From assembly GCA_008501765.1 (NCBI GenBank), contig QQUE01000014.1, positions 141,299 to 173,298 of the forward strand: 32,000 nucleotides of DNA, in the 5' to 3' direction. Below the pieces are notes generated by a model. That model searched no databases. It worked only from the letters and a program-made list of their open reading frames with translations, and had not been told where the DNA came from. A program made the translations under genes and the position numbers. The stretch's first letter is position 1. Every line of letters begins with the position of its first letter. Source of the stretch: Calditrichota bacterium (lineage in GTDB: Bacteria > Zhuqueibacterota > Zhuqueibacteria > Zhuqueibacterales > Geothermadaptataceae). Shown piece by piece: positions 39-28,556 of this stretch.

Positions 39-3000
39 TTGATCATGAACTATTTAGGTATTGATGTGGGATCCGTATCCCTTGCCTATGTTTTAATTGA
101 CGAAGCAAACCAGATTCTACAAAAGGGGTACACATTTCATCGGGGAAATATCCTTCAGAGCATCGAACAGGAATTGGCAGCCATCGATTTTCAATCTGTC
201 GCCCAAATGGCCTATAACCACAGTAGTTCCGGATTTTTTAGCAAAGGGATAGTTGCGAACGAGCAGGTTGCTGCCATCGAAGCGATCAAATTTTTGAATC
301 CGGATGTTCGCAGTTTATTCTCTATTGGTGGGGAAACTTTTGGTCTCTATCTCTTCAACGATCAGGGCAATTATCAAAAATTCATTTCAAATTCTGCCTG
401 TGCAGCTGGAACCGGATCGTTTCTCGATCAGCAAGCTGAGCGGCTGGGATTGGCTGATAGTGCTGAACTCAGCGATTTGGCCGAATCCTTCACAGGCACG
501 CCCCCGAAAATAGCAACGCGCTGTGCTGTGTTTGCCAAAACCGATCTCGTTCACAATCAACAGCAAGGGCATTCTCTGGCTGCCATTTCTGCAGGTTTAT
601 GCAAAGGCATGGCCCAGAATATCGCAGACACACTTTCAAGCGGGCTTTTACTGCATAATCCGGTTATGGCCATCGGTGGCGTAAGCAGAAACAAAACTGT
701 TATGCATCATTTAGAGCAGCTCACAGGTAATAAAATCATTGTCCCGGATGATGCGGAAATCGCTCCTGCCCTGGGTTGTGCGATTATGGCCGCAACAGAT
801 AAACGACTTATCGCACCATTAAAAATCGCATCAATTGATGATTTAACAAATCGCACTGTTAGCGAAAAATCCTATTTCTTTCCGCCGCTGGAATCTGAAC
901 TAGGCGAATTCCCGGATTTTGATTCACACACACATTATGAGTCGGAAAATGTGGAAATCGATATTTACCACTTGCCAAAAAATCTGCGGGAAATTTCGGT
1001 TTTTATGGGTATTGATATCGGTTCGACAAGCACAAAAGCGGTGCTGCTGGAAGACAACGCGAATGCAGAAAATATTCTCCTCGGATTATACACACGTACG
1101 AAAGGACAGCCGGTAAAAGCTGTTCAGGCGTTGCTCCGCGTCTTGCGCGAAATTGAGGATGAACACGGATTGCATTTTGATTTCCGGAGTGTCGGAACCA
1201 CCGGATCAGGTAGAAAATTTGTGCAGAAAGTCATCAACGCAGACCTTGCTGTCGATGAAATCACGGCCCATGCCCGGGCTGCCATCCGGTTAAATCCCGA
1301 AACCGATACGATAATTGAAATCGGTGGTCAGGATGCAAAATTTACGGTACTAAAAAATGGGCAGGTCACCTTTTCGGTGATGAATTACGTCTGCGCCGCC
1401 GGCACAGGCAGTTTTATCGAAGAGCAAGCCAAACGCCTGAATGTACCGATCAATGAATACGCCCGCCGGGCTGTGGGGGCACGTTCACCACTAACCAGCG
1501 ACCGCTGCACGGTTTTTATGGAGCGGGATTTGAATCATTTTCTCAGCCAGGGTTATGGAAAAAATGAACTCTTGGCCGCAGCTCTGCATTCCGTGCGCGA
1601 TAATTATCTTTCCAAAGTTGCCCATCTCAGTAAAATTGGCAATGTCATCTATTTCCAGGGTGCGACTGCAAAAAACAAAGCATTGGTGGCAGCTTTCGAA
1701 CAGAAATTACAAAAGCCGATTTTTGTCTCGCGCTACTGCCACCTGACAGGAGCGCTTGGCGTTTGCCTGATGCTGCAGGAACAGCAATCCGGGAAATCGC
1801 AATTCCGCGGCGTGGATTTTTATAAGGAAACACTGATCGTAAAAGACGATGTCTGCGAACTATGCAAGAACCACTGCAAACTTAAAGAAATCACCATCGC
1901 CGATGAAAAAGTGGTGTGGGGTTATTTATGTGGGCGCGTGGAGGAAGACACAAAACCCAAAGCACGCAATCAATCTGGTTTCGATTTACTGAGCCGCCGC
2001 CGGCAGATATTCCGCCCTCCTTCCAAAAAAGAAAAATTGCCAGAAAAAGAATGTATTTCGTTATTGGAAGAAATCAAACAATTTGATTTTGAAGCTTCGG
2101 TTGAAAAACTAAAACAACTTAATTTTGATGTCTCGCTGGAAACCCTTTCGCGTTTTGAACTGGAACAGAGTTTGGAAAAATTAAAGGAAAATTTTAGCCT
2201 GAATTTGCTCTATTTGCGCCACAAAGTCCTTAGCGGCCATGTGCCTGAAATACAGGCAGTGAAAATAAACAAAGAAATTATCATCGGCCTGCCGAATGCC
2301 TTGTATATGCTGGAATATCTTCCATTTTGGCGATTTTTCTTTTCTCTTCTCGGCTATTCTGTTGTGACTTCGGTATTTAAAGAAGATTATTTGAATAAAG
2401 GCAAAGAGATCAGCGGGGCGGAATTTTGTGCACCAATGTCCAACTGGCATGGCCATGTCCACAGTTTGGCGCAGCGATGCGATTATCTGTTTCTGCCACA
2501 CATGCTTCTGGACGGGCGCACCGACAAACCCAAGTTTTACTGCCATTTTTCCAATTATGCTTCAGCCGTGGTCCAAAACCTGGAAAAATTTCCAATCACG
2601 CAGGAAGTGATCGATCCTTTAATCAATTTTTCGAAACCGGCTCTGGATAATATCAAAGCAATTTATGAAAGTTTTCCGGATGATTTACGCACCGCACAGG
2701 CTCCTAATGATATTCAAGTAGCTTACCACCAGGCCTGGAACTGGTTTAGTGAAAGACGATTAAAGTTGCAGGAAATCTTTACCGAACAGCACGATCCACA
2801 AACCGATCTTTCTGTCGTTTTTTTGGGACGGCCCTATATCATTATTGATCCGGTGATGAATAAAAACATCCCTCGTATTTTTAACGATCTCGGCGTGAAA
2901 ACCTTTTTTCAGGATATGATTCCAGCCCCGGATGTGGCATCCGGGAAACCGGGAAAAGAACTGGTCGACTGGAATCACTGGAAATTTGGCGATTCAATTT

Positions 3001-4472
3001 TACGGACCGCCGAGTTCGTGGCTGAAACACCGGGTTTGTACCCCGTTTTTCTGACAGCATTCAAGTGTGCTCCGGACGCATTTGTGCTGACATATTTTAA
3101 AGAGATTATGGATGCCTATGAAAAACCCTATCTGATTTTACAATTGGATGAGCACGGTTCCGGTGTCGGCTATGAAACGCGTATCGAGTCAGCCGTTCGT
3201 TCTTTTCGCAGCCAGTTAAAGTACAAACAGCAAAGCCCACAACATCCGGAAGATAAAAAAGTACACCGCCAGCCCTATGAAAATGGATGTGTGCTGATCC
3301 CTAATTTTGATCCGCTGGTCAGCGGCCTGGTCAGCAGCGCTTTTGAACAAGCGGGGTATGACGCCCGGTTAATTGAGGAGTCCACAGACACAGTGACCTC
3401 CAGTCTGCGCTTGAATGATGGCCAATGTTTGCCGATCAGTACAATTGTGCAGGGAGCCGTTGACATGATTAGGAAATACAACCTGCAACCACAGTCTACT
3501 TCCCTCTTTATAAACGCAATTACCAATATGGCTTGCAATTTCCCCCAGTACCCGCTCATGGGGAAAAAACTTTTGGAGCAGCGTGGTGACGGACTTGAGA
3601 AAGTGCGAATTTTCGCCACTGAATTTGATATGCGCAGCTTACCCTATGAACTCTTATTTGATGTTTACAGCGCTTACCTGCTCGGAGGTTTTCTGCGTAA
3701 GCTGGCATGCAAGATTCGGCCCTACGAAATTGTTCCTGGCCAGACAGATCAGACTATTGCGAGGGGGCACGACAAGCTTATGCAAACAATTAAAATGGGC
3801 TTGTCCAAGGAAAATGCATTTAGACAAATAGTTCAGGAACTTGGAGCTATTCCAGTGACGGAATCGTATGGCAATCGTCCCAAAGTCACAATCATCGGTG
3901 ACATGTACGTACGCGACAACGATGTTTTTAATCAAAACCTGGTGCGGGATTTGGAAGCGAATGGCGCGGAAGTTATTACAACTCCTTTGAGTTATATGGT
4001 ACGTATGATGGCAGAAATGCGATATTATGGTCTGAAGGTGAACGGGCAATATTTGAATTTAATGCGTAATAAACTTTTAATGGAAGTGCTGGAGTCTATT
4101 GAACGCCGTCATTTTCAAATTGCGAACACGGTTCTAAGAGAAAAATTTCCGGTTTATGATCAGACAATTCTGGACCAGTTAAAAAAATACAAGATATCCT
4201 TGAGCCATGGCGGGGAAACGGCGCAGAATATAATCAAAATATTCAGTATCTTGCAGCATGAAACAAATATCTCGATGATCATTCATGTCAACCCGATTTT
4301 TTGCTGCGCCGGAATGATTAGCGAAGCCTTTTTTAATGCGATTGAAAAGGATATTGGTATTCCAATTATTTCAATTACTTACGATGGAACATCCTCCAAA
4401 CGCAATGATATGTTGAAGCCATACCTTCATTTTATAAAGAATAAAGCCGGTAGAGCTGAAAATTTTGTATAA
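39..4472 (+). CDS. Large fusion protein: two BcrAD/BadFG-type ATPase (acyl-CoA dehydratase activase) modules followed by a 2-hydroxyacyl-CoA dehydratase-like / DUF2229-like C-terminal region
   Basis: Uninterrupted 1477-aa ORF. The activase/ASKHA signature occurs twice (LGIDVGSVS ... CAAGTGSF near the N-terminus; MGIDIGSTSTKAV ... CAAGTGSF about 320 aa later). A Cys cluster (CELCKNHC ... LCGR) follows the second module, and the long C-terminal part resembles dehydratase D-component-like proteins. The track start is TTG at 39. ATG at 45 (MNYLGIDVGS), preceded by GGGGAG, is the more likely start. Confidence 0.8.
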   Translation: MIMNYLGIDVGSVSLAYVLIDEANQILQKGYTFHRGNILQSIEQELAAIDFQSVAQMAYNHSSSGFFSKGIVANEQVAAIEAIKFLNPDVRSLFSIGGETFGLYLFNDQGNYQKFISNSACAAGTGSFLDQQAERLGLADSAELSDLAESFTGTPPKIATRCAVFAKTDLVHNQQQGHSLAAISAGLCKGMAQNIADTLSSGLLLHNPVMAIGGVSRNKTVMHHLEQLTGNKIIVPDDAEIAPALGCAIMAATDKRLIAPLKIASIDDLTNRTVSEKSYFFPPLESELGEFPDFDSHTHYESENVEIDIYHLPKNLREISVFMGIDIGSTSTKAVLLEDNANAENILLGLYTRTKGQPVKAVQALLRVLREIEDEHGLHFDFRSVGTTGSGRKFVQKVINADLAVDEITAHARAAIRLNPETDTIIEIGGQDAKFTVLKNGQVTFSVMNYVCAAGTGSFIEEQAKRLNVPINEYARRAVGARSPLTSDRCTVFMERDLNHFLSQGYGKNELLAAALHSVRDNYLSKVAHLSKIGNVIYFQGATAKNKALVAAFEQKLQKPIFVSRYCHLTGALGVCLMLQEQQSGKSQFRGVDFYKETLIVKDDVCELCKNHCKLKEITIADEKVVWGYLCGRVEEDTKPKARNQSGFDLLSRRRQIFRPPSKKEKLPEKECISLLEEIKQFDFEASVEKLKQLNFDVSLETLSRFELEQSLEKLKENFSLNLLYLRHKVLSGHVPEIQAVKINKEIIIGLPNALYMLEYLPFWRFFFSLLGYSVVTSVFKEDYLNKGKEISGAEFCAPMSNWHGHVHSLAQRCDYLFLPHMLLDGRTDKPKFYCHFSNYASAVVQNLEKFPITQEVIDPLINFSKPALDNIKAIYESFPDDLRTAQAPNDIQVAYHQAWNWFSERRLKLQEIFTEQHDPQTDLSVVFLGRPYIIIDPVMNKNIPRIFNDLGVKTFFQDMIPAPDVASGKPGKELVDWNHWKFGDSILRTAEFVAETPGLYPVFLTAFKCAPDAFVLTYFKEIMDAYEKPYLILQLDEHGSGVGYETRIESAVRSFRSQLKYKQQSPQHPEDKKVHRQPYENGCVLIPNFDPLVSGLVSSAFEQAGYDARLIEESTDTVTSSLRLNDGQCLPISTIVQGAVDMIRKYNLQPQSTSLFINAITNMACNFPQYPLMGKKLLEQRGDGLEKVRIFATEFDMRSLPYELLFDVYSAYLLGGFLRKLACKIRPYEIVPGQTDQTIARGHDKLMQTIKMGLSKENAFRQIVQELGAIPVTESYGNRPKVTIIGDMYVRDNDVFNQNLVRDLEANGAEVITTPLSYMVRMMAEMRYYGLKVNGQYLNLMRNKLLMEVLESIERRHFQIANTVLREKFPVYDQTILDQLKKYKISLSHGGETAQNIIKIFSILQHETNISMIIHVNPIFCCAGMISEAFFNAIEKDIGIPIISITYDGTSSKRNDMLKPYLHFIKNKAGRAENFV

Positions 4473-4697: not shown

Positions 4698-5019
4698 GAA
4701 GTTTCTTCAATTCAATATTTGCATTGCATCTTTATTTTTTATGGCATTAACGGAAAGTCTTGCGCTGGAAGCGCATAGTTTTAAACTAGCGCGCAGAAAC
4801 AATAAAAAAACGGTGCCGAGTAGAACAGCGTTACCGGATGATTTCGGTTGGATTTTATCTGAGTTGGCTAATAGTTGAAATTAGTTGCCAAGCAAATCCT
4901 GGGAAAAATCGTTATTTGTTCGTACGAAAAAAATGGTTAAATTGGAACACAACCTGAATTCATTTGGTTAGCTATCAGGCTTGATACGAAAATCAAATTT
5001 TTATTATTTGAGGTGCCCA

Positions 5020-5694
5020 ATGAAAACTTTGATAAAAATGCTCGTTCTCTTCATTCTACCTTTTACCCTACTCGCCCAAATCCCACACATCACAACACCT
5101 CTTGACGACATGGCCAATCCAGCTGTTTACCGGCAAGGTAACAATATGTATTCCCCTGCTCAGCGCGCCCTGATTCAAGGTGAATTTATTGGATTTCAAG
5201 GCGGAATTGGCACTTACGGTGCGAACGGGCTTTTTCAGAGAGAATGGGCAATACACGAAGATTTGCACCAGGCCTTTGATATGAATTTATACTGGATTCC
5301 ACGCGATGAATATGGCTATTGGGCATCTCGCAGCAGCGTCACACTCGCCAGGGACAACGCCATGCTTATCCCCATTTTTTGGAGTGTACGCAAAAATGTT
5401 TACCGCGAATCCCTCAATTCCGAACTAATCCCCTACCTCGAAGCTGGAGCCGGGCCATTACTTGGCATTCGTTTTCCGGCAAACTACGTTTTTCACGAAA
5501 GCATTCTAAAAGCCACAACCGTCATTTCTGTTGGTGGATTTCTCGGCGCTGGTTTTAACTACGCCATCGGTGAGCGTGGGGCGGGCAATATGTCCGTGCG
5601 CTACAATATTCTCAAATTCCCCGAAAGAGTAGGCCGCCGGGATGACTACAGCGGTTTTTCAATTATGTTTGGATATATAGCGGCCTTCGACTAA
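5020..5694 (+). CDS. Hypothetical secreted protein, possibly outer-membrane associated
   Basis: ORF 4981-5694. The internal ATG at 5020 gives a classical signal peptide (MKTLIKMLVLFILPFTLLAQ). The rest is rich in Gly and aromatic residues with alternating hydrophobicity. I recognise no family motif. Confidence 0.55.
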   Translation: MKTLIKMLVLFILPFTLLAQIPHITTPLDDMANPAVYRQGNNMYSPAQRALIQGEFIGFQGGIGTYGANGLFQREWAIHEDLHQAFDMNLYWIPRDEYGYWASRSSVTLARDNAMLIPIFWSVRKNVYRESLNSELIPYLEAGAGPLLGIRFPANYVFHESILKATTVISVGGFLGAGFNYAIGERGAGNMSVRYNILKFPERVGRRDDYSGFSIMFGYIAAFD

Positions 5695-5720
5695 AACGAA
5701 ATTATAGCTGTTCGCTTTTT

Positions 5721-5760
5721 GCTATTAGCGTTTGGAAAACAATTGCCAAATGCTAATAGC
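5721..5760. terminator. Long hairpin between convergent genes (terminator-like, non-canonical)
   Basis: gctattagcgtttgg-aaaacaattg-ccaaatgctaatagc forms a 15-bp stem with one G-U position. It sits between the stop of the + gene (5694) and the stop of motB (5774). The T5 run lies 5' of the hairpin on the + strand, so neither orientation has the usual 3' U-tract. Confidence 0.35.
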
Positions 5761-5773
5761 TATCAGCAAAATC

Positions 5774-6415
5774 CTATTTGATAATCAAACTCACCCGCCG
5801 GTTGGCCTGCAATCCCCTGTTCGCCCCGATTTCGTCAATACGCAAACGGGTATCAGCATATCCCAGCGCAACAAAACGCTTGGGTTGCACATGTTTATTA
5901 ATCAGGTAACGAATCACATGCGTCGCCCTGGCTGCGGATAATTCCCAGTTGGATGGATAATCCGACTTTTTACTTAATGGCACCGTATCCGTGTGCCCTT
6001 CAACTTTTATATTCCGGTTGGCTACTTTTTCACTGTTTAAAATATCCCCGATTCCTCCCAAAATCGGAAAAGCGCCTTGCTTCAAATCAGCCTTGCCAGA
6101 GTCAAAAAGTATTTTATCCTGAAATGTGAGAAGCAATCCATCCGCGGTTAAGGACACCTCAACACTTTCCTGTAAATCATGCTCGGTAACCAATTTATTA
6201 ACCACTTTTTCTAACTCGTGTAGGGGCAATTTGTCACTCTTGCTAAAATATTCCATAATGGCTTCAAACTTGGCCTGATCCACCTGGGATATCGCAAAAA
6301 ACAGGACGAAAAAAGCGAGCAGCAAAGTCACCATATCACTGTAAGACATCATCCAGGCTTGGTTGTCCTTTGCGCGCGATTTCATTATTTTGTCATGAGG
6401 TAAATCGATTCGCAT
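5774..6415 (-). CDS. motB: MotB-family stator subunit with an OmpA-like peptidoglycan-binding domain
   Basis: The N-terminus SYSDMVTLLLAFFVLFFAI carries the conserved Asp just before a single TM helix. The C-terminal domain has the OmpA/MotB motif (GHTD ... NWELSAARA ... NRRV). The start lies 2 nt after the motA stop. Confidence 0.85.
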   Translation of the reverse strand: MRIDLPHDKIMKSRAKDNQAWMMSYSDMVTLLLAFFVLFFAISQVDQAKFEAIMEYFSKSDKLPLHELEKVVNKLVTEHDLQESVEVSLTADGLLLTFQDKILFDSGKADLKQGAFPILGGIGDILNSEKVANRNIKVEGHTDTVPLSKKSDYPSNWELSAARATHVIRYLINKHVQPKRFVALGYADTRLRIDEIGANRGLQANRRVSLIIK

Positions 6416-6417
6416 AA

Positions 6418-7260
6418 TTATGCCGCCTTTTTAAACAAGCCCTGTTTCTTTTGTAATGCCCCTTTGCCTGCGACTTTCATCAGTTTTTTACGCGAACCGG
6501 CGTTTAAATATGCCGCCAGCTTGTCGCGTGCAAAAATATAATTTTTCTTATCATAAATGAGCAAGATAGCCTCGATTTGCAGTGTTTCGCAGAGTAAATT
6601 CGTTTCGGCCTGTTCTGCAATCTTTCCGCCGATCGGTGCAAAAATCATATTGGCGAGAATCAATCCATAAAAAGTTGTGATAAGGGCAATGGCCAGGCCG
6701 GAACCGACATCAGACGGATTGGTTTGCAGTGTCAGTAACATATTTATCAGGCCGATCAGGGTTCCAATCATACCAAAAGCCGGGGCCGTTTGGGACATCG
6801 ACATAAACAGATCGCGTTGTTTTAACTCCCGGGAAACCTGCCATTTAACCTGATCTTCGAGCGTGGTTTTCACTTCTTCGCGTGTGTAGCCATTGACCAA
6901 CATTTGCAGGCCGTCTTTGAAAATCCACAGACCACGAACGTTTTTAAACTGAGCTTGCATAGCCTGAACACCATCGCGCTGCCCGATGCGAATCGCAGTC
7001 ACCATTTTATCGATAACATCGATATAATTGACCCGGCCCGAGCGGAAAATGATAAAATAGGACATGAATCCGCGAAAAACCTCCCGCGACGGATGCGAAA
7101 TAAAAGTTGCAGCGATCGTGCCGCCAAAAACGATGGCCACACCCTGCCAATTGAGAAAAACTTCCGGTGTTGCTTGCCCTGAAATAATTCCATAAGCAAT
7201 TAATGCCACACCTGCCATGACGCCTAATAATGTAAACACGGCTACCCTTTCTATTTTCAA
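6418..7260 (-). CDS. motA: MotA/PomA-family proton- or ion-channel stator subunit
   Basis: Four predicted TM helices with a roughly 100-aa charged cytoplasmic loop between TM2 and TM3, which is the MotA topology rather than ExbB/TolQ. Conserved prolines are present in TM3 (APAFGMIGT) and TM4 (FAPIGGK). A MotA-like C-terminal helix is also present. Confidence 0.85.
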   Translation of the reverse strand: MKIERVAVFTLLGVMAGVALIAYGIISGQATPEVFLNWQGVAIVFGGTIAATFISHPSREVFRGFMSYFIIFRSGRVNYIDVIDKMVTAIRIGQRDGVQAMQAQFKNVRGLWIFKDGLQMLVNGYTREEVKTTLEDQVKWQVSRELKQRDLFMSMSQTAPAFGMIGTLIGLINMLLTLQTNPSDVGSGLAIALITTFYGLILANMIFAPIGGKIAEQAETNLLCETLQIEAILLIYDKKNYIFARDKLAAYLNAGSRKKLMKVAGKGALQKKQGLFKKAA

Positions 7261-7268
7261 TTTAATTT

Positions 7269-7985
7269 TTATTCTTTGTAGCGTGCGACCAGCCCTTTTA
7301 ATTCGTCCAGCTCGGGATTAATTTTCAAAGCATTTTCCCAAGCACGAACGGCTTCATTCACCTCACCATTGACAAAATAAATTGACCCGCCGAGTGAATA
7401 GGCTGATGCTGTTTTTTTCTTTTCCAAACTGGAATTCAGAATTTTTAAGGCCTGATCGTATTCATTTTTATAAAAAAGTTGCTGTGCCAAATTGATATCC
7501 TGAATGATGTCGTCGGTCAAATCTTCACTCGGATCAAAAGGGGCAGCATTGTACGGTGAAGTTTTGGTGCTGTCTTTGGGGCCTAATTGCGTCAACACAT
7601 CATCCCCTTTTTTCACCTCCCACGTGCCATCGGGATGACGTTTCAAATCAAGATCAATATTCGTCGAAAGCGGATCGAGCACCATTTCGATATCCGTGTC
7701 TTTTTGATAAAACTTGACACTGATATAAGGATAACTGGTTGTCTTTTTAAGTTTTGCGCCGTCCAGCTCTGTCACGATCGTGGTTTCACGCTGTTTTTTC
7801 TCCGCCCGGATTGTAGAGTCCGCTTTTTCTTCGATAGCCATTATTTCATCTGGCGAAATCTCGGACGCATCGCCGGGGTTCGCGGGAATTTCCTTTTTCA
7901 CCGTGGCATTATTCCCCCCACAACTTAAAAGTAGGGTGGCCCAGGTTATAAATATAATTTTCACAAAAAGTTGTTTTAATAGCAT
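7269..7985 (-). CDS. TPR-repeat lipoprotein
   Basis: The track ORF extends to 8057 and overlaps the upstream gene. The ATG at 7985 gives MLLKQLFVKIIFITWATLLLSCGG with a lipobox (LLSC). The C-terminus has TPR-like helices (YDQALKILNSSL ... EAVRAWENALKINPE). Confidence 0.7.
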   Translation of the reverse strand: MLLKQLFVKIIFITWATLLLSCGGNNATVKKEIPANPGDASEISPDEIMAIEEKADSTIRAEKKQRETTIVTELDGAKLKKTTSYPYISVKFYQKDTDIEMVLDPLSTNIDLDLKRHPDGTWEVKKGDDVLTQLGPKDSTKTSPYNAAPFDPSEDLTDDIIQDINLAQQLFYKNEYDQALKILNSSLEKKKTASAYSLGGSIYFVNGEVNEAVRAWENALKINPELDELKGLVARYKE

Positions 7986-8013
7986 TTTATCATCCTGTTT
8001 AATAGAGCCAATA

Positions 8014-9162
8014 TTAAAATGAAAGCTGCAACAGCATGAGTTCATATTGCATGCCACTGATTTTCAGATTGAGTTTTTCACCGCTGGATTTTACTTCCTG
8101 AGATTCAAACTCTTTGCCGAGCACCATGCTCACGCCGGCCGAAAATGAAAATCGTTCTGTGAAATCTGTCCGCAAACCAACACTGATACTGGAAATATCC
8201 GGCATTTTCATGGCGAAGTGCCGCGTTAATGCAAAATAGGCAGAAAGCCAGTCAGAGCGGTTGCTTTTACGATTTTCGATCAGCGTCGAATAAAGCATCG
8301 TGCGCACATTGTAGGAAACAGGGATCGAGAAACCACCGGTGCGCGAAGAAGTCCCGTAAAAGCCTGTTTTCGTGAAAGCCGTGCCGTTCAATTCCAGACC
8401 GTCTGTGAGAAATGCCAGTCCAATTCGAAACTCGTAGCGCAAACGGCTTTTTTCCCAACGATATTGGTGCACACCGTAATAAATAGTTTGGTGTTTTAAC
8501 TGATTTGTCGCTTTGGCGTGAATTAAGGTATCACCGGCCGGTACATCCCATTCGATCGGAAAAACTTCCAGCCCGGCGATGAGTGATTTCATAAACGGAT
8601 TCGGAGATGGTAACTCGGGATCGTCCACATAAGCTGCAAATGAGCGTGACCACACGACTTCACTGGTGCCCACTTTGTTCAATTTCAAATCCAGCAGCAT
8701 GGCTTTTCCCGGCAAATAAGTAACGGCGCCGTCCATAAAAGCATCGATTCGCAGGCGTTTGCCTATTTTCCACAATTCATGTGGCGACGGCAATGTATTA
8801 ACGATGCGGAAGCTGCTATCTGTGGAGGCAATTTTCATCGTGTTCATTTCGGGCAATGAAACCATTGCCGGCATTTCCAGATTTCGAAAAATTTCTGCAA
8901 TCCGTGCTTCAAAGTGGGTTCGCAATGCGGGTGGGATATAGCGTTCATCTACCTTTAAATGATACACCGCAATACGCTCAAGATCTGTTCCGACTTCCGG
9001 GGCCGCTTGCGCCACTTGAACAAAAATATCTTCCATTAAATTAAAGAGGAGACTTTTCTGCACCTTTTTATTCTTTTCTTGGCCCGGAAGTGGTGCGGCA
9101 AAACCTAAAATGAATACAATGAAAGCGACCAAAAATCTGTTTAATCTGCATTTATTGCCCAT
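8014..9162 (-). CDS. Signal-peptide protein: periplasmic alpha/beta module (CsgG/LpoB/FlgO-like pattern) plus a C-terminal outer-membrane beta-barrel
   Basis: Signal peptide FLVAFIVFILGFAAPLPGQ. The N-terminal half shows the pattern RIAVYHL ... GKRLRIDAFMDGAVTY ... LLDLKLNKVGTSEVVWS, which parallels the CsgG-family protein at 11799-12725. The C-terminal half has amphipathic beta-strand periodicity and ends in the OMP signature ...LLQLSF. Confidence 0.55.
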   Translation of the reverse strand: MGNKCRLNRFLVAFIVFILGFAAPLPGQEKNKKVQKSLLFNLMEDIFVQVAQAAPEVGTDLERIAVYHLKVDERYIPPALRTHFEARIAEIFRNLEMPAMVSLPEMNTMKIASTDSSFRIVNTLPSPHELWKIGKRLRIDAFMDGAVTYLPGKAMLLDLKLNKVGTSEVVWSRSFAAYVDDPELPSPNPFMKSLIAGLEVFPIEWDVPAGDTLIHAKATNQLKHQTIYYGVHQYRWEKSRLRYEFRIGLAFLTDGLELNGTAFTKTGFYGTSSRTGGFSIPVSYNVRTMLYSTLIENRKSNRSDWLSAYFALTRHFAMKMPDISSISVGLRTDFTERFSFSAGVSMVLGKEFESQEVKSSGEKLNLKISGMQYELMLLQLSF

Positions 9163-9173
9163 GATTTTCTCTC

Positions 9174-10973
9174 TTATTTTACCATTTCTTTGCTGATAGC
9201 CGATTGCCGTACTGTTCGCATGAGCTGTCGGCGTGCGAGGGTAACTTCTTCATCTGTAACGTCGTTGCTGGCCTCAAGGCTGGCCTGAACCATCTCAGCA
9301 AGTTTATCTGGTAAAGCTTCGATTATCCGGTTCACGGTCGAATCATCGACATGGATGAGGGATTTTGCCAATAAATCGCGATCAACAGTAAAAGCCAATT
9401 CGCGTACTTTTTCAGCAGGCAGCTCAACCAGTTGGCTAAAAGTCATGTACTTTGCTTTGATCCGCTGTGATAAATTCAAATCTTGAGTTTCGATGTATTC
9501 CAGGATTTGCTCCTGATCAAAATCATCCATAAAATCAAGAATATTAACCAAGGCGTCAATGCCATCGGAGCGGACAAAACGCATCGATTCAACATCTTTT
9601 GCCCGGACGAGGAGTTGCCTCGCAATGTGCTGATAAACATCCGCCGGCACTTTCTCTACATTGCCCATTGCGGCAAGCGCGGCGGGTTGTTTGCGCGGCT
9701 CCAGCGATTTGATCAATTTATAAGCACGTTCAGGTTGCAACTGTGCTAAAACGATGGCCCGCACGCCGTCTTTCAATGGTTTAATCAGGTGCAATAACTG
9801 ATCATCTGACAATTGGTGTAAAAATGCCAAAGCATCGATTTCTTCTTCATTTCGGATAGCAGAAATGGCTGTATTTCGTAAATTCTCGTCAAATCGTTTT
9901 ATAAGCTCAGGCCCGGCTGTGACCACCTCATCCTCAGGCACTTCTTCCACATGCTGTTGCACATCGGCGGAAATTTTTGCGCCAAGATGCTCGGCAAGAA
10001 ATCCATTTAAATGTTTCGAAGTAGCCCGGAACAAAATGGCAGCATCCCGCGGACCATTGCGTTCATCGGTTTTCACCCATGTTTTAATAACCTGGGCAGC
10101 CGCTCTTGGTGTTCCGATTATCGCATCAACCACCGATGATTTTAGCGTGCGAAAGGCTGCTTCATCCGAGGAAGCTTCAGTCTCTTTATCTTGCGGTTTC
10201 TGCTCGGAGGAGGGAGTTGGCTCCGGCATTACTTTAGGACGTTCCGGACTCAATTTTTTCAGAATTGAATTCATCCCCCAAAAAAGAATAATTAAAAAGA
10301 TGCCGGCGATCACTGCCGCAAATATAAATGGCCGCCAATCCATGCCAGCCAATTGTTCGTCGGGAAAAAGCGATTGTGTGAAGGCTTCCTGTTTGCTGCT
10401 ATCGCGCAAACTTTTTGTACCCAATCGATTGAAATAATTGGCTTTAACCGGGAAATCAAATGCTTCGACTGACACCCGATCCCCACGTTTGGGATCCATA
10501 TCAGCAGAAAGAGAAACCAACCGCCGGATAAATGCCCAGTCCCCTTCGGTGAAACTTTTATCCACCAGCACATTGACATTTAACCGTTTCACTTGCATGC
10601 CGGAGTTCTCCGCCACTTCACGAAACTGGTCGTTTTCCTGCTCGTTGTCATTCCCCTGCCCGGGTATAAATGGTAAACCAGGCAAAGACATTACTTCTTT
10701 TTTCAACAAAACATCAGGAAGCGGCGGCAAGGGTTTGCGCTTGCGTACTTTTTCCAATTGCACATTGGCTTTAACTACAAACTTGGTTTCCGGGAAATAG
10801 GTGAGCAAGGCTGTTTCCAGGTTCCACGAAAGGTTCGCTTCCATCGTTTTTTCGATGCCCTCGAGAGTCTTTTCCGAAGCTGGAATTTGCGCGCTGCTGC
10901 CAACACAGGCTAATCCCCAAACCATTCCTGTAAAAAATAGTCGTTTAAGATTTCTGCAAAATGTTATTTTCAT
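9174..10973 (-). CDS. Membrane-anchored chimera: short FliF/YscJ-like periplasmic region, one TM helix, Pro/acidic linker, then a full-length FliG-like (N, middle, C) cytoplasmic region
   Basis: N-terminal hydrophobic segment (signal peptide or TM1). The periplasmic segment ends in VKRLNVNVLVDKSFTEGDWAFIRRLVSLSADMDPKRGDRVSVEAFDF, which matches the FliF C-terminal periplasmic pattern. TM helix RPFIFAAVIAGIFLIILFWGM. The C-terminal ~145 aa (DGIDALVNILDFMD ... ILEYIETQDLNLSQRIKAKYMTFSQLVEL ... ALPDKLAEMVQASL ...) align without gaps, by eye, to the FliG hinge, MFxF motif and C-terminal domain. Confidence 0.65.
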   Translation of the reverse strand: MKITFCRNLKRLFFTGMVWGLACVGSSAQIPASEKTLEGIEKTMEANLSWNLETALLTYFPETKFVVKANVQLEKVRKRKPLPPLPDVLLKKEVMSLPGLPFIPGQGNDNEQENDQFREVAENSGMQVKRLNVNVLVDKSFTEGDWAFIRRLVSLSADMDPKRGDRVSVEAFDFPVKANYFNRLGTKSLRDSSKQEAFTQSLFPDEQLAGMDWRPFIFAAVIAGIFLIILFWGMNSILKKLSPERPKVMPEPTPSSEQKPQDKETEASSDEAAFRTLKSSVVDAIIGTPRAAAQVIKTWVKTDERNGPRDAAILFRATSKHLNGFLAEHLGAKISADVQQHVEEVPEDEVVTAGPELIKRFDENLRNTAISAIRNEEEIDALAFLHQLSDDQLLHLIKPLKDGVRAIVLAQLQPERAYKLIKSLEPRKQPAALAAMGNVEKVPADVYQHIARQLLVRAKDVESMRFVRSDGIDALVNILDFMDDFDQEQILEYIETQDLNLSQRIKAKYMTFSQLVELPAEKVRELAFTVDRDLLAKSLIHVDDSTVNRIIEALPDKLAEMVQASLEASNDVTDEEVTLARRQLMRTVRQSAISKEMVK

Positions 10974-11247
10974 CCTGATTTTCCTTTATTGAAGAGTCTT
11001 ATCATTCATCGGAAAAATAGGAAAACACTTAAAATTAAAGCCCATTCGCAACAAAATCTTAAAAAGATAAATTGGCAGGAATGCAGAATTTTTCAGGACA
11101 GGAGTTAAACTTTTGTACGCCTGTTTATTGGTTGGATGATTTTTTTTGAAGAAAAATTGTGGGTGAAGTCCCCGGTTAATAAAATTTTTGATTAGGTCTT
11201 TAGCTCCGTTGCCTTTTCCCTGTTGGCCTTTGAAAAATGGCGTTAAG

Positions 11248-11530
11248 AAATTTTGGATTATTTCCGTTAAGAACCATTTTCTGTTTGAGCGCAGCGAGTT
11301 TAACCTGCTTTATTCACAAATATCTGTTAAAATATTCTTAACCTTTTGATAATTAGATATTTGAGATAAGACGAGAAGAGAAGTTAAGTTATCTATTAAA
11401 ATTAGTTCTCACAAAGCCACGGAGTTCACAAAGTTATGATTTATAAGTATTTAAATATTTTCTTTGCGGACTTAGTGCCTTTGTGTGAGAATTATTCAGG
11501 TTAAATGATTTAGGAAATAATCCAAAATTT
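11248..11530. repeat. Nested inverted-repeat element (MITE-like or structured RNA) in a long intergenic region
   Basis: Perfect 18-bp IR: aaattttggattatttcc (11248-11265) versus ggaaataatccaaaattt (11513-11530). Inner perfect 9-bp IR: tttaacctg (11299-11307) versus caggttaaa (11497-11505). Innermost imperfect 'CACAAAG' palindrome: ctcacaaagccacggagttcacaaag (11408-11433) versus ctttgcggacttagtgcctttgtgtgag (11462-11489). Confidence 0.6.
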
Positions 11531-11579
11531 ACGACTACCTGTTTGCTTCGCAATTAGTCATTTTTCGTCAGCCTTGATT

Positions 11580-11646
11580 TTGCTTCGCCGGCTTTCAGCT
11601 TTTTATTTCTTTTTTGATCAAGCAAAGCCAACGGCCGGCGAAGCAA
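11580..11646. repeat. GC-rich 13-bp perfect inverted repeat, with a third copy of the core nearby
   Basis: ttgcttcgccggc (11580-11592) versus gccggcgaagcaa (11634-11646). An additional direct copy tttgcttcgc lies at 11542-11551. Neither strand has a U-tract after the hairpin. Confidence 0.5.
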
Positions 11647-11798
11647 TAAGAAAAAATTAAATGGTTAATACTAAAGTAGTTATTTGCTTAAATGCGGAGT
11701 TAATGGCTCAATCAATAAAAATATTATATTGAATACCTGCATAACAGGTTTGGGAAATCGATTTTCTGTTACACAGATATCCAATATTTCATATCGTC

Positions 11799-12725
11799 CT
11801 ATTTATCGCGAACTATATCACTGCGGCTAAATCCACTTCCGGAAACAATGGAGCACTTCGAGGCTTTGCCTTTGCCAACGGAATTGCTGGTTACTTTAAT
11901 TTGACCAACTTTTTCTTCCTCGGATCCCAGAGAAAGCCCGGTGTCGGGATCGATGAGCTCTTCACCGGGGCGATAAACTGTGAACACGTCGCCAACTTTA
12001 ACGCCATTGGCACTTCCGGCGTTGATAATAATCGTGCCACCGCTCACTTTGACAATTTTTCCCTGCCATTTCATATTCGATGATTTATCATCGACAATTT
12101 TCATGATGTCTTCGATTGCCTGGCGCGTCGCTTTACCAATGAGAGACTGGTCGAACTTATTGCGATTATTAAAACTAAGTCCTTCTTTTCGGAAACTGAG
12201 GCCACGTTTTTTCTTTTCACGGCGAATATTTTCTGCCGACAAAATTTCTCCGGTTGTGGTATTCACCAGGCGCACGTCAACTGCCACGGTAACCGTCTGC
12301 GAACTCACACCAACACCAATCCCTTTGGCGGTACCCCCAACATCGCCTTTGGAATGCCCAAATTCTGTAACTGTTCCAATTACCGCAATTTCGACACCAA
12401 GCAATTTACCGGCCTGAGCGGCTGTTTGTGGGGTAACCAGACCACTCATTCCTAATTTCTGTTCTTGCATAATTTTGTCCAAAGCCGTGCGTTCGATAAC
12501 GGTATATTTACCCGTTTTTACCAATTCGGTTATCAACATATCCGCCATTCCGCGCCCAGGTCCCTGGCCAGTCCACCACATAACCCGGTGGTCTGTTTTG
12601 TCCTGAAATTCAAAAACAGCGATGCGTTTTTTCTTACCACCTTTTTCTGCAGCCATCAAACCGGACACTTGCAGCATCAGAATAGCGAAAAATAAAAACT
12701 GAATCAGGGAAACAACTTTCTTCAT
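11799..12725 (-). CDS. CsgG-family periplasmic/outer-membrane protein with an extra C-terminal beta-rich domain
   Basis: After a signal peptide comes KKKRIAVFEFQDKT ... GRGMADMLITELVKTGKYTVIERTALDKIMQEQKL ... AAQAGKLLGVEIAVIGTVTEFG ... VAVDVRLVNTTTGEIL, the CsgG-family pattern. The C-terminal ~90 aa (GKIVKVSGGTIIINAGSANGVKVGDVFTVY ...) form an added small beta domain. The signal peptide has no lipobox Cys. Confidence 0.7.
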   Translation of the reverse strand: MKKVVSLIQFLFFAILMLQVSGLMAAEKGGKKKRIAVFEFQDKTDHRVMWWTGQGPGRGMADMLITELVKTGKYTVIERTALDKIMQEQKLGMSGLVTPQTAAQAGKLLGVEIAVIGTVTEFGHSKGDVGGTAKGIGVGVSSQTVTVAVDVRLVNTTTGEILSAENIRREKKKRGLSFRKEGLSFNNRNKFDQSLIGKATRQAIEDIMKIVDDKSSNMKWQGKIVKVSGGTIIINAGSANGVKVGDVFTVYRPGEELIDPDTGLSLGSEEEKVGQIKVTSNSVGKGKASKCSIVSGSGFSRSDIVRDK

Positions 12726-12993: not shown

Positions 12994-13905
12994 ATGAAAC
13001 CAAGTTTATTGATTCTTGCCGCCGGACTCGGTTCCCGCTATGGCAGCCTCAAACAAATAGATCAATTCGGGCCATCTGGCGAAACAATTATTGATTATTC
13101 GATTTACGATGCCATCAAAGCAGGTTTTAAAAAAGTGGTGTTTGTCATTCGGAAAAACATTGAATCCGAATTCAAAGACGTTTTTGTCGATAAATTTTCA
13201 GAGAAAATTGAAATCGACTATGCGCTCCAGGAAATCGAATCGGTACCACAGGGCGTTCAATTCTCTAAATTTCGAAAAAAACCATGGGGCACCGGGCATG
13301 CCGTGCTCGTTGCCGCGAATCGAATTAATGAACCATTTGCCGTTGTCAATGCCGATGATTTTTATGGCGCACATTCCTTTCAATTAATATACAATTATTT
13401 GAATTCTCAATGTTTGGAAAACCTGGTCTGTGGCCTGGTCGGCTTCAAACTCACGAATACAATCTCGGAATTTGGCGCAGTCTCCCGTGGCATCTGTGAG
13501 TATAAAAATGGCAGATTACAAAGCATTATCGAACGGACTAAAATCTATAAAAAAGATGATGCGATAGTTTTCGAAGACGAAAACGGTCAAATTTGTGAAT
13601 TGGCAAAAGGAGCCATTGTTTCGATGAATTTAATGGGATTTACGCCAGCTATTTTCGCTTTTCTGGAGCAGCGATTTAAGGTGTTCGCCAACAAAAACAA
13701 GGATAATCTTGAAGCTGAATTTTTTCTGCCAAATGTTGTCAACGACCTGGCTGTCGCCAAATTAGCCAGGGTGAGCCTTTTGCCAAGCAGCGAAAAATGG
13801 TTTGGGGTCACTTACCAGCAAGATAAACCAGTTGCCAAAAGAAAATTGGGCGAACTGATCACGGCGGGAATTTACCCGGAAAATTTATGGGCCGCGAAGA
13901 GCTAA
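12994..13905 (+). CDS. Sugar-1-phosphate nucleotidyltransferase (NTP-transferase fold, MurU-like)
   Basis: N-terminal LILAAGLGSRYGSLKQ is the G-x-G-[ST]-R nucleotide-binding loop of GT-A nucleotidyltransferases. The VVNADDFYG acidic motif is present. The stop lies 3 nt before the next gene. Confidence 0.75.
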   Translation: MKPSLLILAAGLGSRYGSLKQIDQFGPSGETIIDYSIYDAIKAGFKKVVFVIRKNIESEFKDVFVDKFSEKIEIDYALQEIESVPQGVQFSKFRKKPWGTGHAVLVAANRINEPFAVVNADDFYGAHSFQLIYNYLNSQCLENLVCGLVGFKLTNTISEFGAVSRGICEYKNGRLQSIIERTKIYKKDDAIVFEDENGQICELAKGAIVSMNLMGFTPAIFAFLEQRFKVFANKNKDNLEAEFFLPNVVNDLAVAKLARVSLLPSSEKWFGVTYQQDKPVAKRKLGELITAGIYPENLWAAKS

Positions 13906-13908
13906 ATT

Positions 13909-15015
13909 ATGACAAATTATGATCTGAAATTTATAGCTGCAAATTTTGAAATTGAGGGGAATTTTCACAGTGCAGAACCTTTTGGAAATGGGCACATTAA
14001 CGATACTTTTCTCATAAGCATGGCAGAAAAGAATAATCGCCACTACCTTTTGCAGCGCATCAATGATCATGTTTTTCGAAATGTGCCGCAGTTGATGCAA
14101 AATATTGAAAATGTAACGCGCCATATCCGCAATAAAATCAGAAATATACCAGGCGCAGATCCGGAACGCAATTGTATGACTTTCATCCCGGCAGGAAATG
14201 GAAAACCATTTTATCAGGATGATGACGGAAACTTATGGCGGGCTTGTTATTTTATCGAAAACAGCTTTAGCTATGATAGCGTTAAATCACCGGAACACGC
14301 CCGGCAAGGTGGCTTGGCGTTTGGAAATTTTCAAAAATTACTGGCTGATTTCCCTGCCAAGTTGCTGCACGAAACCATCCCCAATTTTCACAATGTGGAT
14401 GTTAGGCTCGAGAGTTTTTACAGAACAATTAAACGTGATCCGTTTAAAAGAACACAAGCTGGATCGAAAGAAATTCGATTCATAGAAAATCGTGCCGATG
14501 AAATGCACCATATTCTTCATCTCGGAGACAAGGGCAAAATTGCCACCCGCATAACCCACAACGATACGAAATTTAACAATGTTCTTTTCGACAAATCAGG
14601 CAAATTTCTCTGCGTAATCGATCTCGACACCGTCATGCCCGGATACGTGCACTATGACTTTGGCGATGCCATCCGTACTGGTTGCAACACCGGTTCGGAA
14701 GATGATCCGAATCTGGAAAAAGTTGAATTGAATATAATTTTTTTTGAAGCATACACGAATGGATTCTTGCACGAAACCAAGTCTTTTCTCAGCACAATTG
14801 AAATTGAAAATCTGGCATTTTCGGCCAAACTCCTCACTTACATAATGGGTTTGCGTTTTCTCACGGATTACTTTGACGGGGATAACTACTATAAAATTCA
14901 CCACAAAAACCATAATTTGCAACGAGCCAGAGCCCAATTCAAGTTATTAGAAAGTATGGAAAGTCAATACAGCAGGATGCAGGCGATTATTTTGCAGCAG
15001 GCCGGCTTGGGATAG
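13909..15015 (+). CDS. APH-fold sugar anomeric kinase (NahK/AmgK-like phosphotransferase)
   Basis: Brenner-type catalytic motif HNDTKFNNVLFD and Mg-binding VIDLDTV. Length and position next to a nucleotidyltransferase fit the N-acetylhexosamine/MurNAc 1-kinase families. Confidence 0.7.
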   Translation: MTNYDLKFIAANFEIEGNFHSAEPFGNGHINDTFLISMAEKNNRHYLLQRINDHVFRNVPQLMQNIENVTRHIRNKIRNIPGADPERNCMTFIPAGNGKPFYQDDDGNLWRACYFIENSFSYDSVKSPEHARQGGLAFGNFQKLLADFPAKLLHETIPNFHNVDVRLESFYRTIKRDPFKRTQAGSKEIRFIENRADEMHHILHLGDKGKIATRITHNDTKFNNVLFDKSGKFLCVIDLDTVMPGYVHYDFGDAIRTGCNTGSEDDPNLEKVELNIIFFEAYTNGFLHETKSFLSTIEIENLAFSAKLLTYIMGLRFLTDYFDGDNYYKIHHKNHNLQRARAQFKLLESMESQYSRMQAIILQQAGLG

Positions 15016-23669: not shown

Positions 23670-23781
23670 TCAGTTCCAATGTCGCTTTTTCAAATTTCAA
23701 AAAAACAAGCGCAAGTTTTTAAAACGAATGGCGTCATAAGTAATAAACAAACGAATGACAACCAAACAATTTAAGGTAAAA

Positions 23782-27884: not shown

Positions 27885-28556
27885 CTGCGCACCGACTCCC
27901 GTTCTCTTGATATGGCTTTGATGACAAAAACCGAAAGTAGCAGGAAGTCGCAATTATCGCCTTGCATGCTTGCGGTTTGTCGACTCAGGATTTTCGGGAT
28001 CATCTTGAGGATATCTATCAGGTTGAAGTTTCATGTGAGCTTATCTCTCATGTGACCAATGGAATTATTAATGAAGTTCGTGAATGGCAGAATCGTCCAT
28101 TGAATGCTCAATATCCGATTGTTTATCTCGATGCTTTAAGGGTCAATATCCGAGAACAGGGGCAGATTATTAAAGAGGCTGTTTATCTGGCTTTAGGAGT
28201 AAATACTGAGGGCCACAAAGAACTTCTTGGTTTGTGGATTAAAAAAAAATGAAGGTGCCAAATTCTGTTTGAGCGTCATCACTGAGTTGAAAAATCGTGG
28301 TGTGGAAATTATATTTGTCGCTTGTGTGGATGGGCTCAAAGGCTTACCTGAAACCATCAATACTGTTTTTCCAAAAACCAATATTCAGCTCTATATCATC
28401 CACATTGTGCGTAATTCTCTGAAGTTTGTCTCCTGGAATGACCGGAAAAATAGTGCGCAGGACTTGAAAAATATTAAAAAAAAATGGTCCATGCCTATCC
28501 AAAACTGGAAGCAGGCAATGAACCAATTAACCATTATTTATGAAGATCGAATCTAA
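27885..28556 (+). pseudogene. Decayed IS256-family (Mutator-like) transposase remnant
   Basis: IIALHACGLSTQDFRDHLEDIYQVEVSCELISHVTNGIINEVREWQNRPL ... YPIVYLDALRVNIRE ... AVYLALGVNTEGHKELLGLWI, then a frameshift in an A9 run (28241-28249), then NEGAKFCLSVITELKNRGVEIIFVACVDGLKGLPETINTVFPKTNIQLYIIHIVRNSLKFV. The N-terminal ~90 aa are missing. An internal deletion at a second A9 run (28476-28484) joins DLKNI directly to the C-terminal KKWSMPIQNWKQAMNQL. The left boundary is approximate. Confidence 0.8.

Follow-up and report, generated by a model that had tools for sequence, protein, structure and literature searches.

A stretch of 32,000 nucleotides from a Calditrichota bacterium (GCA_008501765.1, contig QQUE01000014.1; called the window below, at its full 32 kb) contains a cassette of five minus-strand genes that encode a flagellar motor core with no flagellum at the locus. 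In the order of transcription, the genes encode a FliF–FliG fusion protein lacking part of FliF (9174–10973, 599 amino acid residues (aa)), an outer-membrane barrel protein (8014–9162, 382 aa), a tetratricopeptide repeat (TPR) lipoprotein (7269–7985, 238 aa), MotA (6418–7260, 280 aa, TTG start), and MotB (5774–6415, 213 aa). In several phyla, purifying selection maintains the five genes as one inherited unit, which is located apart from flagellar genes. We consider it probable that they form a self-contained machine that spans the envelope, is made from the core of the flagellar motor, and is not itself flagellar. The cassette is a widespread selected module in which only the FliF-RBM3/FliG/MotAB core (RBM, ring-building motif) is retained, combined with partners of the outer membrane and of the TPR type.

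In flagella, the MotA5B2 stator makes torque by contacting the C-terminal domain of FliG, and to our knowledge no torque generation between FliG and MotAB has been described outside the flagellum. The presence of a flagellar-type stator is taken to be diagnostic of flagellar motility (PMC12505986). An earlier note on this DNA, made from the sequence without database searches, was aware of no described system of such composition. No description of the cassette was found in the full-text literature, subscription-only literature being outside the scope, but the combination of fliG and motAB without a flagellum had been remarked on once in passing: motAB and fliG, in a role called "unclear", are present in free-living Elusimicrobiota that have no structural flagellar genes (preprint 10.1101/2022.07.08.499144). 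The other related items in the literature and databases are a chlamydial fusion, compared in the last section, and the NCBI label "FliG C-terminal domain-containing protein".

A FliF–FliG fusion, a stator, and two envelope proteins

The five open reading frames (ORFs) are intact and are separated by 11, 28, 8, and 2 nt, and our ORF check confirmed this packing as the earlier note had given it. Two start codons should be noted. The longest ORF of the 238-aa gene reaches a GTG at 8057, and the ATG at 7985 is favoured by homologs and by a lipoprotein signal peptide. The longest MotA ORF begins with a TTG at 7260, which lies 7 codons upstream of the start in all homologs ("M[LF]T[LFV][LI]G"). Judging from these homologs, the true MotA start may be slightly downstream of 7260, and the 8-nt gap to the TPR gene would then be wider.

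The 599-aa protein is a FliF without RBM1 and RBM2 whose chain continues straight into a complete FliG with its N, M, and C domains, and the chimera proposed in the earlier note thus stands. Pfam gives matches to YscJ_FliF_C (7e-8, aa 115–174, covering only the C-terminal profile positions 84–147), FliG_M (7e-6), and FliG_C (7e-14), and phmmer matches the FliG chains 3hjl, 1lkv, and 4fhr in the PDB. The AlphaFold2 (AF2) model (m35ae431c5054) has a predicted local distance difference test score (pLDDT) of 73. The N-terminal segment (aa 1–28, 10890–10973, minus strand as all features of the cassette) is a signal peptide or a first transmembrane (TM) segment; it forms a helix at aa 2–26 in the model and is hydrophobic, ending in ...AQ, throughout the family. 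It is followed by a periplasmic split RBM3-like domain (aa 37–175, 10449–10865), the topology of which in the model is alpha-beta-[50-residue insert]-beta-alpha-beta. Foldseek matches this domain to the RBM3/S-ring region of FliF (8z5v, 8z4d, and 6sd1) with a target TM-score (TMt) of ~0.58. FliF and SpoIIIAG carry a "split RBM" insert (PMC4768692), and the insert of the fusion, between the first two strands, is located at the same place. The domain contains an LPGLP motif in the insert (aa 97–101) and an RGD motif (aa 163–165), both of which are near-universal among the 164 members of the fusion family.

The second TM segment (TM2, aa 214–241, 10251–10334) is a helix in the model and aligns with TM2 of FliF; its hydropathy peak at aa 216–234 falls at positions equivalent to those in 138 full-length relatives. 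A linker disordered in the model connects TM2 to an all-helical region (aa 265–598). This region contains the equivalent of the C-terminal FliG-binding helix of FliF (aa 284–301, IIGTPRAAAQVIKTWV, 10071–10124); its residues G287, P289, and W299 do not vary in the family. When the family profile is aligned with the C-terminal third of E. coli FliF, the RGD..PF motif, TM2, and the FliG-binding helix correspond segment by segment: E. coli EKRGDSLNVVNSPF (RGD..F-P) and NDPRVVALVIRQWI in the helix are aligned to PKRGDRVSVEAFDFP and GTPRAAAQVIKTWV of the fusion, respectively. The helix segment, weak on its own, also aligns with the FliF part of the fusion construct in 8z4d.

The FliG-like N, M, and C domains (aa 302–598, 9180–10070) are found by both phmmer and Foldseek. 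In the Foldseek search of the PDB, the helical region matches full-length FliG (3hjl) over 309 aligned columns with an E-value of 5e-9, and also matches FliG chains of the Salmonella C-ring. The last subdomain matches the MotAB-bound FliG fragment 8ucs_H with a TMt of 0.82 and an rmsd of 1.6 Å. The torque-helix equivalent is located in this C-terminal part (aa 554–567, LPDKLAEMVQASLE).

What the fusion lacks should also be described. RBM1 and RBM2 form the part of the MS (membrane–supramembrane) ring around the export gate. Pfam, AF2, and Foldseek all place a single RBM3-like domain between the two hydrophobic segments, so that an MS-ring FliF with RBM1, RBM2, and RBM3 is not encoded here. The EHPQR motif by which FliG binds FliM is also lost. 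Residues of FliG were mapped onto the 164 members, and the mapping agrees with the MAFFT and HMMER alignments. In the clade of the window, E125-H126-P127-Q128 is replaced by L-K-x-G and R160 by A; in the distant members, only E125 is kept and the equivalents of H126, Q128, and R160 are not conserved. The TIGR00207 model for fliG gives 62 bits for the fusion against a cut-off of 226.7.

MotA and MotB, the latter with a peptidoglycan anchor, were correctly recognized in the earlier note. MotA matches MotA_ExbB in Pfam (6e-23), and its best NCBIfam models are MotP (5.5e-42) and PomA (2.2e-39), compared with 4.6e-4 for TolQ and 6.5e-3 for ExbB. It aligns over its full length with C. sporogenes MotA (6ysf, 3.6e-37), Bacillus MotA, and Vibrio PomA (8bri), the alignments with 6ysf and 8bri being free of large gaps. 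Four TM helices and the extended cytoplasmic torque-generating domain are present, and the equivalents of P173 and P222 are conserved in all 14 cassette MotAs compared. MotB matches MotB_plug (6e-18) and OmpA (6e-16) in Pfam, the MotS, MotD, and MotB models in NCBIfam (2e-48 to 3e-42), and 6ysf_A in the PDB (3.8e-30). It has the plug helix and the OmpA-type peptidoglycan-binding domain, and its channel aspartate, D27 in "YSDMVT", is invariant in all cassette MotBs.

Since the NCBIfam scores of MotA lie below the equivalog cut-offs (143.6 against 394), MotA is a divergent member of the flagellar type. The plug, the OmpA-type domain, and the extended cytoplasmic domain are its flagellar-type hallmarks in the FIT/GIT framework (PMC12505986). 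The stator is of the flagellar type (FIT/TGI4-like, PomA/MotP-like), the FIT placement being taken from best hits only. The residues of the ion channel are intact, and judged by them the stator should be competent.

The 382-aa protein has no match in Pfam or NCBIfam. In its AF2 model (m00b267f39e7b, pLDDT 78), a signal peptide is followed by an alpha/beta domain (aa 36–178, 8629–9057) and an eight-stranded beta-barrel (aa 190–381, 8020–8595), in line with the earlier note, which had described a signal-peptide protein with a beta-barrel ending ...LQLSF. This ending belongs to an aromatic signal conserved in the family (...LLQxSF). Foldseek matches the alpha/beta domain to LpoB (4q6l, TMt 0.63) and to TolB (E-value 3e-7, with a TM-score of ~0.2), and the barrel to Ail, OmpA, OmpX, and NspA (TMt 0.44–0.52). 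The protein is thus predicted to be an eight-stranded outer-membrane barrel with a TolB-N/LpoB-like periplasmic domain. The TPR protein, called a TPR lipoprotein in the earlier note as well, carries a lipobox (LLSC), a middle domain that is conserved, and, in its C-terminal part, a TPR module (TPR_1/TPR_2, ~2e-7), and the lipobox cysteine is conserved in orthologs from Calditrichota and KSB1.

Conservation of the cassette and the genes around it

An exhaustive hidden Markov model search of 1.84 billion representatives gave ~197 fusion clusters (50% identity) at E ≤ 1e-30, and nearly all of their representatives are ~600 aa long and match the profile from end to end. This search supersedes word-indexed homolog searches, the 29 clusters of which were an underestimate. 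A scan of genome contigs with the single protein gave one close relative, in locus L006. Of 149 sequences inspected (147 representatives plus P0001 and P0029), 138 are full length and have a TM segment around aa 200–250. The named members come from Calditrichota (Calditrichaeota), KSB1, Elusimicrobiota, Gammaproteobacteria, and Pseudomonadota.

The five genes occur in the same order in L001, L002, L006, L007, L010, L012, L020, L021, and L023, and partially in L009 and L013. In the Elusimicrobiota loci L004 and L028, the order is kept and the TPR segment is fused to MotB. A metagenome-assembled genome of Gammaproteobacteria (L022, GCA_029884425.1) has all five in the order MotA, MotB, a 372-aa protein, TPR, and fusion; the 372-aa protein matches the profile of the 382-aa family at 1.8e-13. 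The distant variants L024, L026, L027, and L029 have the fusion, the cassette-type TPR module, and usually MotAB in rearranged order. The cassette-type TPR module is present in all the distant loci, sometimes fused to MotB or other proteins. In the compared loci, the gene of the 382-aa family is a neighbour of the fusion gene, barring the permuted L022 and the three loci without a match (L024, L026, and L027). The cassette is accordingly found in at least four phylum-level groups. The earlier note had proposed to look for conservation as a unit across non-flagellated genomes of the FCB (Fibrobacteres–Chlorobi–Bacteroidetes) group; the unit is indeed kept in many genomes and between non-flagellar flanks, and FCB-like genomes are included, but it is not restricted to that group. 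The same note was ready to give up its reading if the 599-aa protein proved unrelated to FliG and FliF and the cassette unconserved; the domain and fold matches and the conservation over several phyla were found instead.

These data bear on the reading that a flagellar regulon was lost and that the cassette is what remains of it, decaying and without a present function. Such a remnant would explain why only a subset of flagellar-derived genes is present. However, the five ORFs are intact, the ratios of nonsynonymous to synonymous substitution rates (dN/dS) are 0.03–0.16 for all five genes (L002 versus L021), motifs are invariant in ~160 diverse members, and the same non-flagellar partners recur across phyla. 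The dN/dS and conservation data effectively refute a relic or a set of pseudogenes.

The genes surrounding the cassettes are unrelated, change from lineage to lineage, and include nothing flagellar in any context examined. No flagellar gene was found within ±10 kb of ~14 homologous cassette contexts, and those for type III export, rod, hook, and filament (flhAB, fliPQR, fliHIJ, flgB-G, flgE, and fliC) are absent from these surroundings and from the window. No fliM or fliN was found in the 32-kb window or in any flank of the homologous loci examined. In the window, the remaining non-nested ORFs of at least 100 aa (20 ORFs, including the two cassette neighbours) were scanned with Pfam, and none is flagellar or chemotactic, so the earlier note was right that the window holds no other core flagellar genes. 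Only two names in the window sound flagellar: a sub-threshold FlgD_ig match, which is an Ig fold in a CotH protein sorted by a type IX secretion system (T9SS), and a sub-threshold FlgT_C match in a CsgG-like lipoprotein.

Could the cassette nevertheless be an atypical piece of a real flagellum, either as the sole fliF/fliG/motAB of the host or as a second, specialized rotor–stator set for a flagellum encoded elsewhere? All the recognizable homologies are to flagellar proteins, and Calditrichota and some KSB1 encode flagella. Contrarily, the fusion has no RBM1 and RBM2 and nothing to house FliPQR/FlhAB, the FliM-binding motif is absent, the fliG score is far below its cut-off, flagellar genes are missing from the surveyed surroundings, and the constant partners, the outer-membrane barrel and TPR proteins, have no flagellar counterpart by sequence. 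The Elusimicrobiota cited above combine motAB and fliG with a lack of structural flagellar genes (10.1101/2022.07.08.499144). No homolog is named from the flagellated C. abyssi, a weak point as most matches are nameless. We regard a flagellar role of this kind as very unlikely, and although a cassette may stand beside a true flagellum in some hosts, this would not contradict a separate function.

Several distant loci carry additional domains or genes. In L024, a SPOR (septal peptidoglycan-binding) domain is fused to the C-terminus of MotB (13205–14710, 501 aa), and in L022, a SPOR domain is found on a Sel1-repeat protein immediately upstream of motA (5191–6663). These domains could indicate a role at the division site. 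L024 also encodes a 1003-aa protein (6953–9964) with faint SdrD_B and weak NOMO1-like_2nd matches in Pfam and a C-terminal cassette-type TPR module (3.9e-19). Its gene follows DUF4402 and fn3_5 genes and immediately precedes the fusion gene, and the protein may be a lineage-specific cargo or partner.

Directly downstream of the cassette in L022 (12614–18819), there are genes for a BBP2_2 porin, a Poly_export/SLBB (Wza-like) protein, a Wzz/GNVR kinase (Wzc-like), and Wzy_C. This polysaccharide export set may be a hint at the output of the module, or a coincidence. It is the chief argument for the reading that the cassette is an accessory motor for the export of polysaccharides or surface polymers, energizing or organizing a Wza/Wzc-type or similar pathway. 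Sugar-nucleotide enzymes near some other cassettes, NTP_transferase in the window (12994–13905) and UDPGP in L001, point in the same direction. However, the association is clear at one locus only, and the neighbours elsewhere are unrelated housekeeping or miscellaneous genes, which makes a dedicated export motor improbable.

A lipoprotein gene of the CsgG family (PF03783, 7.7e-39; 11799–12725, minus strand) is located 825 bp upstream of the operon; its tail is the FlgT_C-like one mentioned above. The lipoprotein was considered as a sixth component and rejected, as it adjoins the cassette in no other locus. The spacer (10974–11798) is AT-rich (GC 0.36 in the 1-kb bin 11001–12000). No Rfam family scores above threshold, the spacer included, and scans for promoters and terminators gave counts near the shuffle expectation and nothing usable. 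LpoB-fold lipoproteins are encoded just upstream of the Elusimicrobiota cassette L004 (6860–7336 and 2615–3220); they have the same fold class as the periplasmic domain of the 382-aa protein and are absent at L028.

On the other side of the cassette, the plus strand encodes a protein of 237 aa (4981–5694), convergent with motB, that carries a hydrophobic signal-like segment at its N-terminus and matches no family; it has no counterpart beside the cassette in other loci. Farther out on the plus strand, a 1477-aa polypeptide (39–4472) contains two BcrAD_BadFG-type ATPase (activase) modules and a DUF2229 coenzyme A-enzyme-activase domain. The CotH kinase-like protein (23755–26094) has a lamin-tail domain and carries a T9SS sorting domain at its C-terminus; genes for VTC-domain and DUF4956 proteins come next, up to 27741, and the group looks like a co-oriented cluster. 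The T9SS sorting tag indicates a host of the FCB group. A 109-aa fragment of a Mutator-family transposase (28227–28556, plus strand; profile positions 203–284 of 379) is apparently the remnant of a truncated insertion sequence.

Proposed machine and rotor–stator interface

In the mechanism that we propose, the fusion protein would form a ring in the inner membrane with its FliG_C domains on the cytoplasmic face. MotA5B2 units anchored to the cell wall would conduct H+ or Na+, turn against FliG_C, and drive the ring in one direction only. The lack of a FliM/FliN docking motif suggests that there is no switch and that the ring is unidirectional. The lack of an export gate, rod, hook, and filament suggests that the work is delivered in the periplasm, where the RBM3 ring, through its LPGLP insert and its RGD face, would bind to the outer-membrane barrel protein at the periplasmic domain of the latter. 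The TPR lipoprotein would act as a scaffold or as a stator adaptor. The output could be the moving or remodelling of an outer-membrane or surface component, surface motility, the upkeep of the envelope or division site, or polysaccharide export.

The claims made here differ in strength. A machine that is separate from the flagellum is the probable part. For an actual continuous rotation of the fusion ring, we put the chances at about even. The fullest form of the proposal, that the cassette is a free-standing ion-driven rotary ring, a minimal rotor–stator pair without type III secretion or an axial structure that is coupled to an outer-membrane protein and represents a new kind of rotary machine, is offered tentatively. 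Such a ring could drive surface motility, transport of surface components, or envelope remodelling.

The residues at the rotor–stator interface should be noted, since they weigh against the proposed machine. The E. coli pairs given in PMC7564593 are MotA R90–FliG D289 and MotA E98–FliG R281. In each pair, one partner is largely retained: the R281 equivalent is basic in 153 of 164 family members, and the R90 equivalent in 13 of 14 cassette MotAs. The opposite partners are changed. In the clade of the window, 27 of the 28 members have A-S at the equivalents of FliG D288/D289; among the 78 most distant members, only 49 have an acidic residue at position 289; and the E98 equivalent of MotA is acidic in only two of the 14 cassette MotAs. 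The equivalents of FliG K264 and R297 are not conserved, and the charged interface (FliG K264, R281, D288, D289, and R297; MotA R90 and E98) is thus not maintained as a whole. As the aligned residues indicate, neither canonical salt bridge is intact, so that the interface must work differently or may not generate torque, and this alteration lowers our confidence in torque generated exactly as in the flagellum. On the other hand, the replacements are strongly conserved, which argues for a re-wired interface under selection and not for decay.

Ring formation by the fusion is predicted from its fold homology. Other observations also weigh against the proposed machine. The barrel protein has no profile match in the three distant loci named above, and motAB is not adjacent in L026 and L029. 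Flagella occur in the host phyla, namely in C. abyssi (PMC5317091) and in clades II and IV of KSB1 (PMC9012183). The earlier note had taken the stator and its FliG partner as an ion-driven rotor–stator pair: the stator appears competent and the FliG complete, while the canonical charge pairs are not conserved, and rotation and its output we infer.

The altered interface is also an argument for the main rival explanation, a non-rotary force transducer resembling Tol-Pal or TonB. According to this explanation, the FliG-like domain only couples the fusion to the MotA pentamer, and the ion flow pulls or remodels an outer-membrane partner, in the service of cell division or of the integrity of the envelope, with no turning ring. 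The parts can be paralleled with those of Tol-Pal: the stator pair with TolQR, the inner-membrane-anchored periplasmic protein with TolA, the TolB-N-like protein with TolB, the TPR protein with CpoB, and the OmpA-type binder with Pal. TolB is indeed the top Foldseek match of the 382-aa protein, and the SPOR domains on MotB of L024 and on the Sel1 protein beside the L022 cassette fit an envelope function. However, the similarity to TolB is poor in TM-score and the beta-propeller is absent, and the SPOR fusions are limited to these two distant variants. The stator, with its plug and OmpA domain, is of the flagellar type and not of the Tol/Exb type, as the MotP and TolQ E-values indicate. The periplasmic domain of the fusion is a ring-building motif homologous to that in the S-ring of FliF, and a complete FliG N-M-C is kept under purifying selection. 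We consider the transducer rather unlikely on these grounds.

If the proposed rotary machine exists, it would be the first 5:2 motor with an output via FliG outside the flagellum, and the MS-ring/FliG/MotAB core would be able to function alone. With no switch and no export apparatus, the five genes would offer a tractable model for rotor–stator coupling through a non-canonical interface. The free-standing ring would be a surviving relative of a pre-flagellar motor or an exaptation of the flagellar one, and the origin of the flagellar motor would become testable: whether such a module is useful without a secretion system, and whether its lineage split off before the flagellar FliG and MotA or is nested among them. 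The cassette also explains annotations of "fliG + motAB without flagella" in Elusimicrobiota and other uncultured phyla and cautions against scoring motility from KEGG calls of fliG and motAB.

Comparison with known systems

ExbBD-TonB, GldLM/PorLM, AglRQS, and ZorAB share with the cassette the reuse of an ion-driven stator-type complex for a task other than swimming. They transmit force through periplasmic or other partners and none via FliG, whereas the stator of the cassette is of the flagellar type with a FliG partner. The statement in the earlier note that the known 5:2 motors use different partner proteins is therefore sound. The Exb, Tol, and Agl stators are placed in the generic GIT clade, with Zorya more distant and GldLM/PorLM not placed (PMC12505986). 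Membership of the cassette in any of these systems is not indicated: ExbB scores poorly, as given above, and no Gld, Por, Zor, or TonB match was found in Pfam and NCBIfam, PADLOC not being searched.

Tol-Pal resembles the cassette more broadly, as an envelope-spanning set in which a 5:2-type stator driven by ions is combined with a periplasmic protein anchored in the inner membrane, a protein with a TolB-N-like domain, a TPR protein (cf. CpoB), and an OmpA-type peptidoglycan binder. It differs in that MotA matches TolQ only marginally, TolA, the beta-propeller, and a Pal lipoprotein are lacking, and the coupling partner is a cytoplasmic FliG-like domain and not a TM helix. Membership in Tol-Pal was rejected on sequence and fold, and Tol-Pal is kept as a functional analogy only.

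Fusions of FliF and FliG have precedents. The fusion of Chlamydiaceae (Bergeron 2016, PMC4768692) is ~330 aa long, with two TM segments, RBM2 and one more RBM, and a FliG-M-like segment only. It is encoded with homologs of fliI and flhA and is thought to work with the injectisome, and no MotAB partner is described for it (PMC4768692). It is likewise a natural fusion of a shortened FliF with a FliG-like part, in bacteria regarded as non-flagellated (PMC4768692). The protein described here differs in its length of ~600 aa, its RBM3, its full FliG with FliG_C, and its encoding with motAB; the features of the chlamydial type are not found in the 599-aa protein, which is set apart by the published description only (PMC4768692). 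Engineered or spontaneous fusions (Salmonella mutants and the Vibrio construct in PDB 8z4d) indicate that a covalent link between FliF and FliG is compatible with ring assembly, and the motor of a Salmonella FliF–FliG fusion-deletion mutant still rotates according to the literature cited in PMC9389320. These fusions contain full-length FliF in a complete flagellum, whereas that of the cassette is natural, truncated, and without flagellar context.

Among known systems, the core of the flagellar motor comes closest. Three of the four defining features of a flagellum that were compared, a FliF with RBM1 to RBM3, the EHPQR motif, and the charged interface, are missing, and the cassette is therefore not a member of the flagellum. 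FliF and FliG form one polypeptide without RBM1 and RBM2, neither a FliM/FliN docking motif nor a switch is present, and the R90–D289 and E98–R281 pairs are not intact. The locus has no export gate of a type III secretion system, ATPase, rod, hook, filament, or chemotaxis genes, and barrel and TPR proteins are constant partners. Shared with the flagellum are the RBM3 fold of FliF with RGD..PF, TM2, and the FliG-binding helix; the N, M, and C domains of FliG with the MotA-binding subdomain of FliG_C; a flagellar-type MotA; and a MotB with the channel aspartate, the plug, and the OmpA domain. The cassette plausibly works like the flagellar rotor–stator pair, and what is new relative to this known core is the fused architecture, the new partners, and the locus free of a flagellum.

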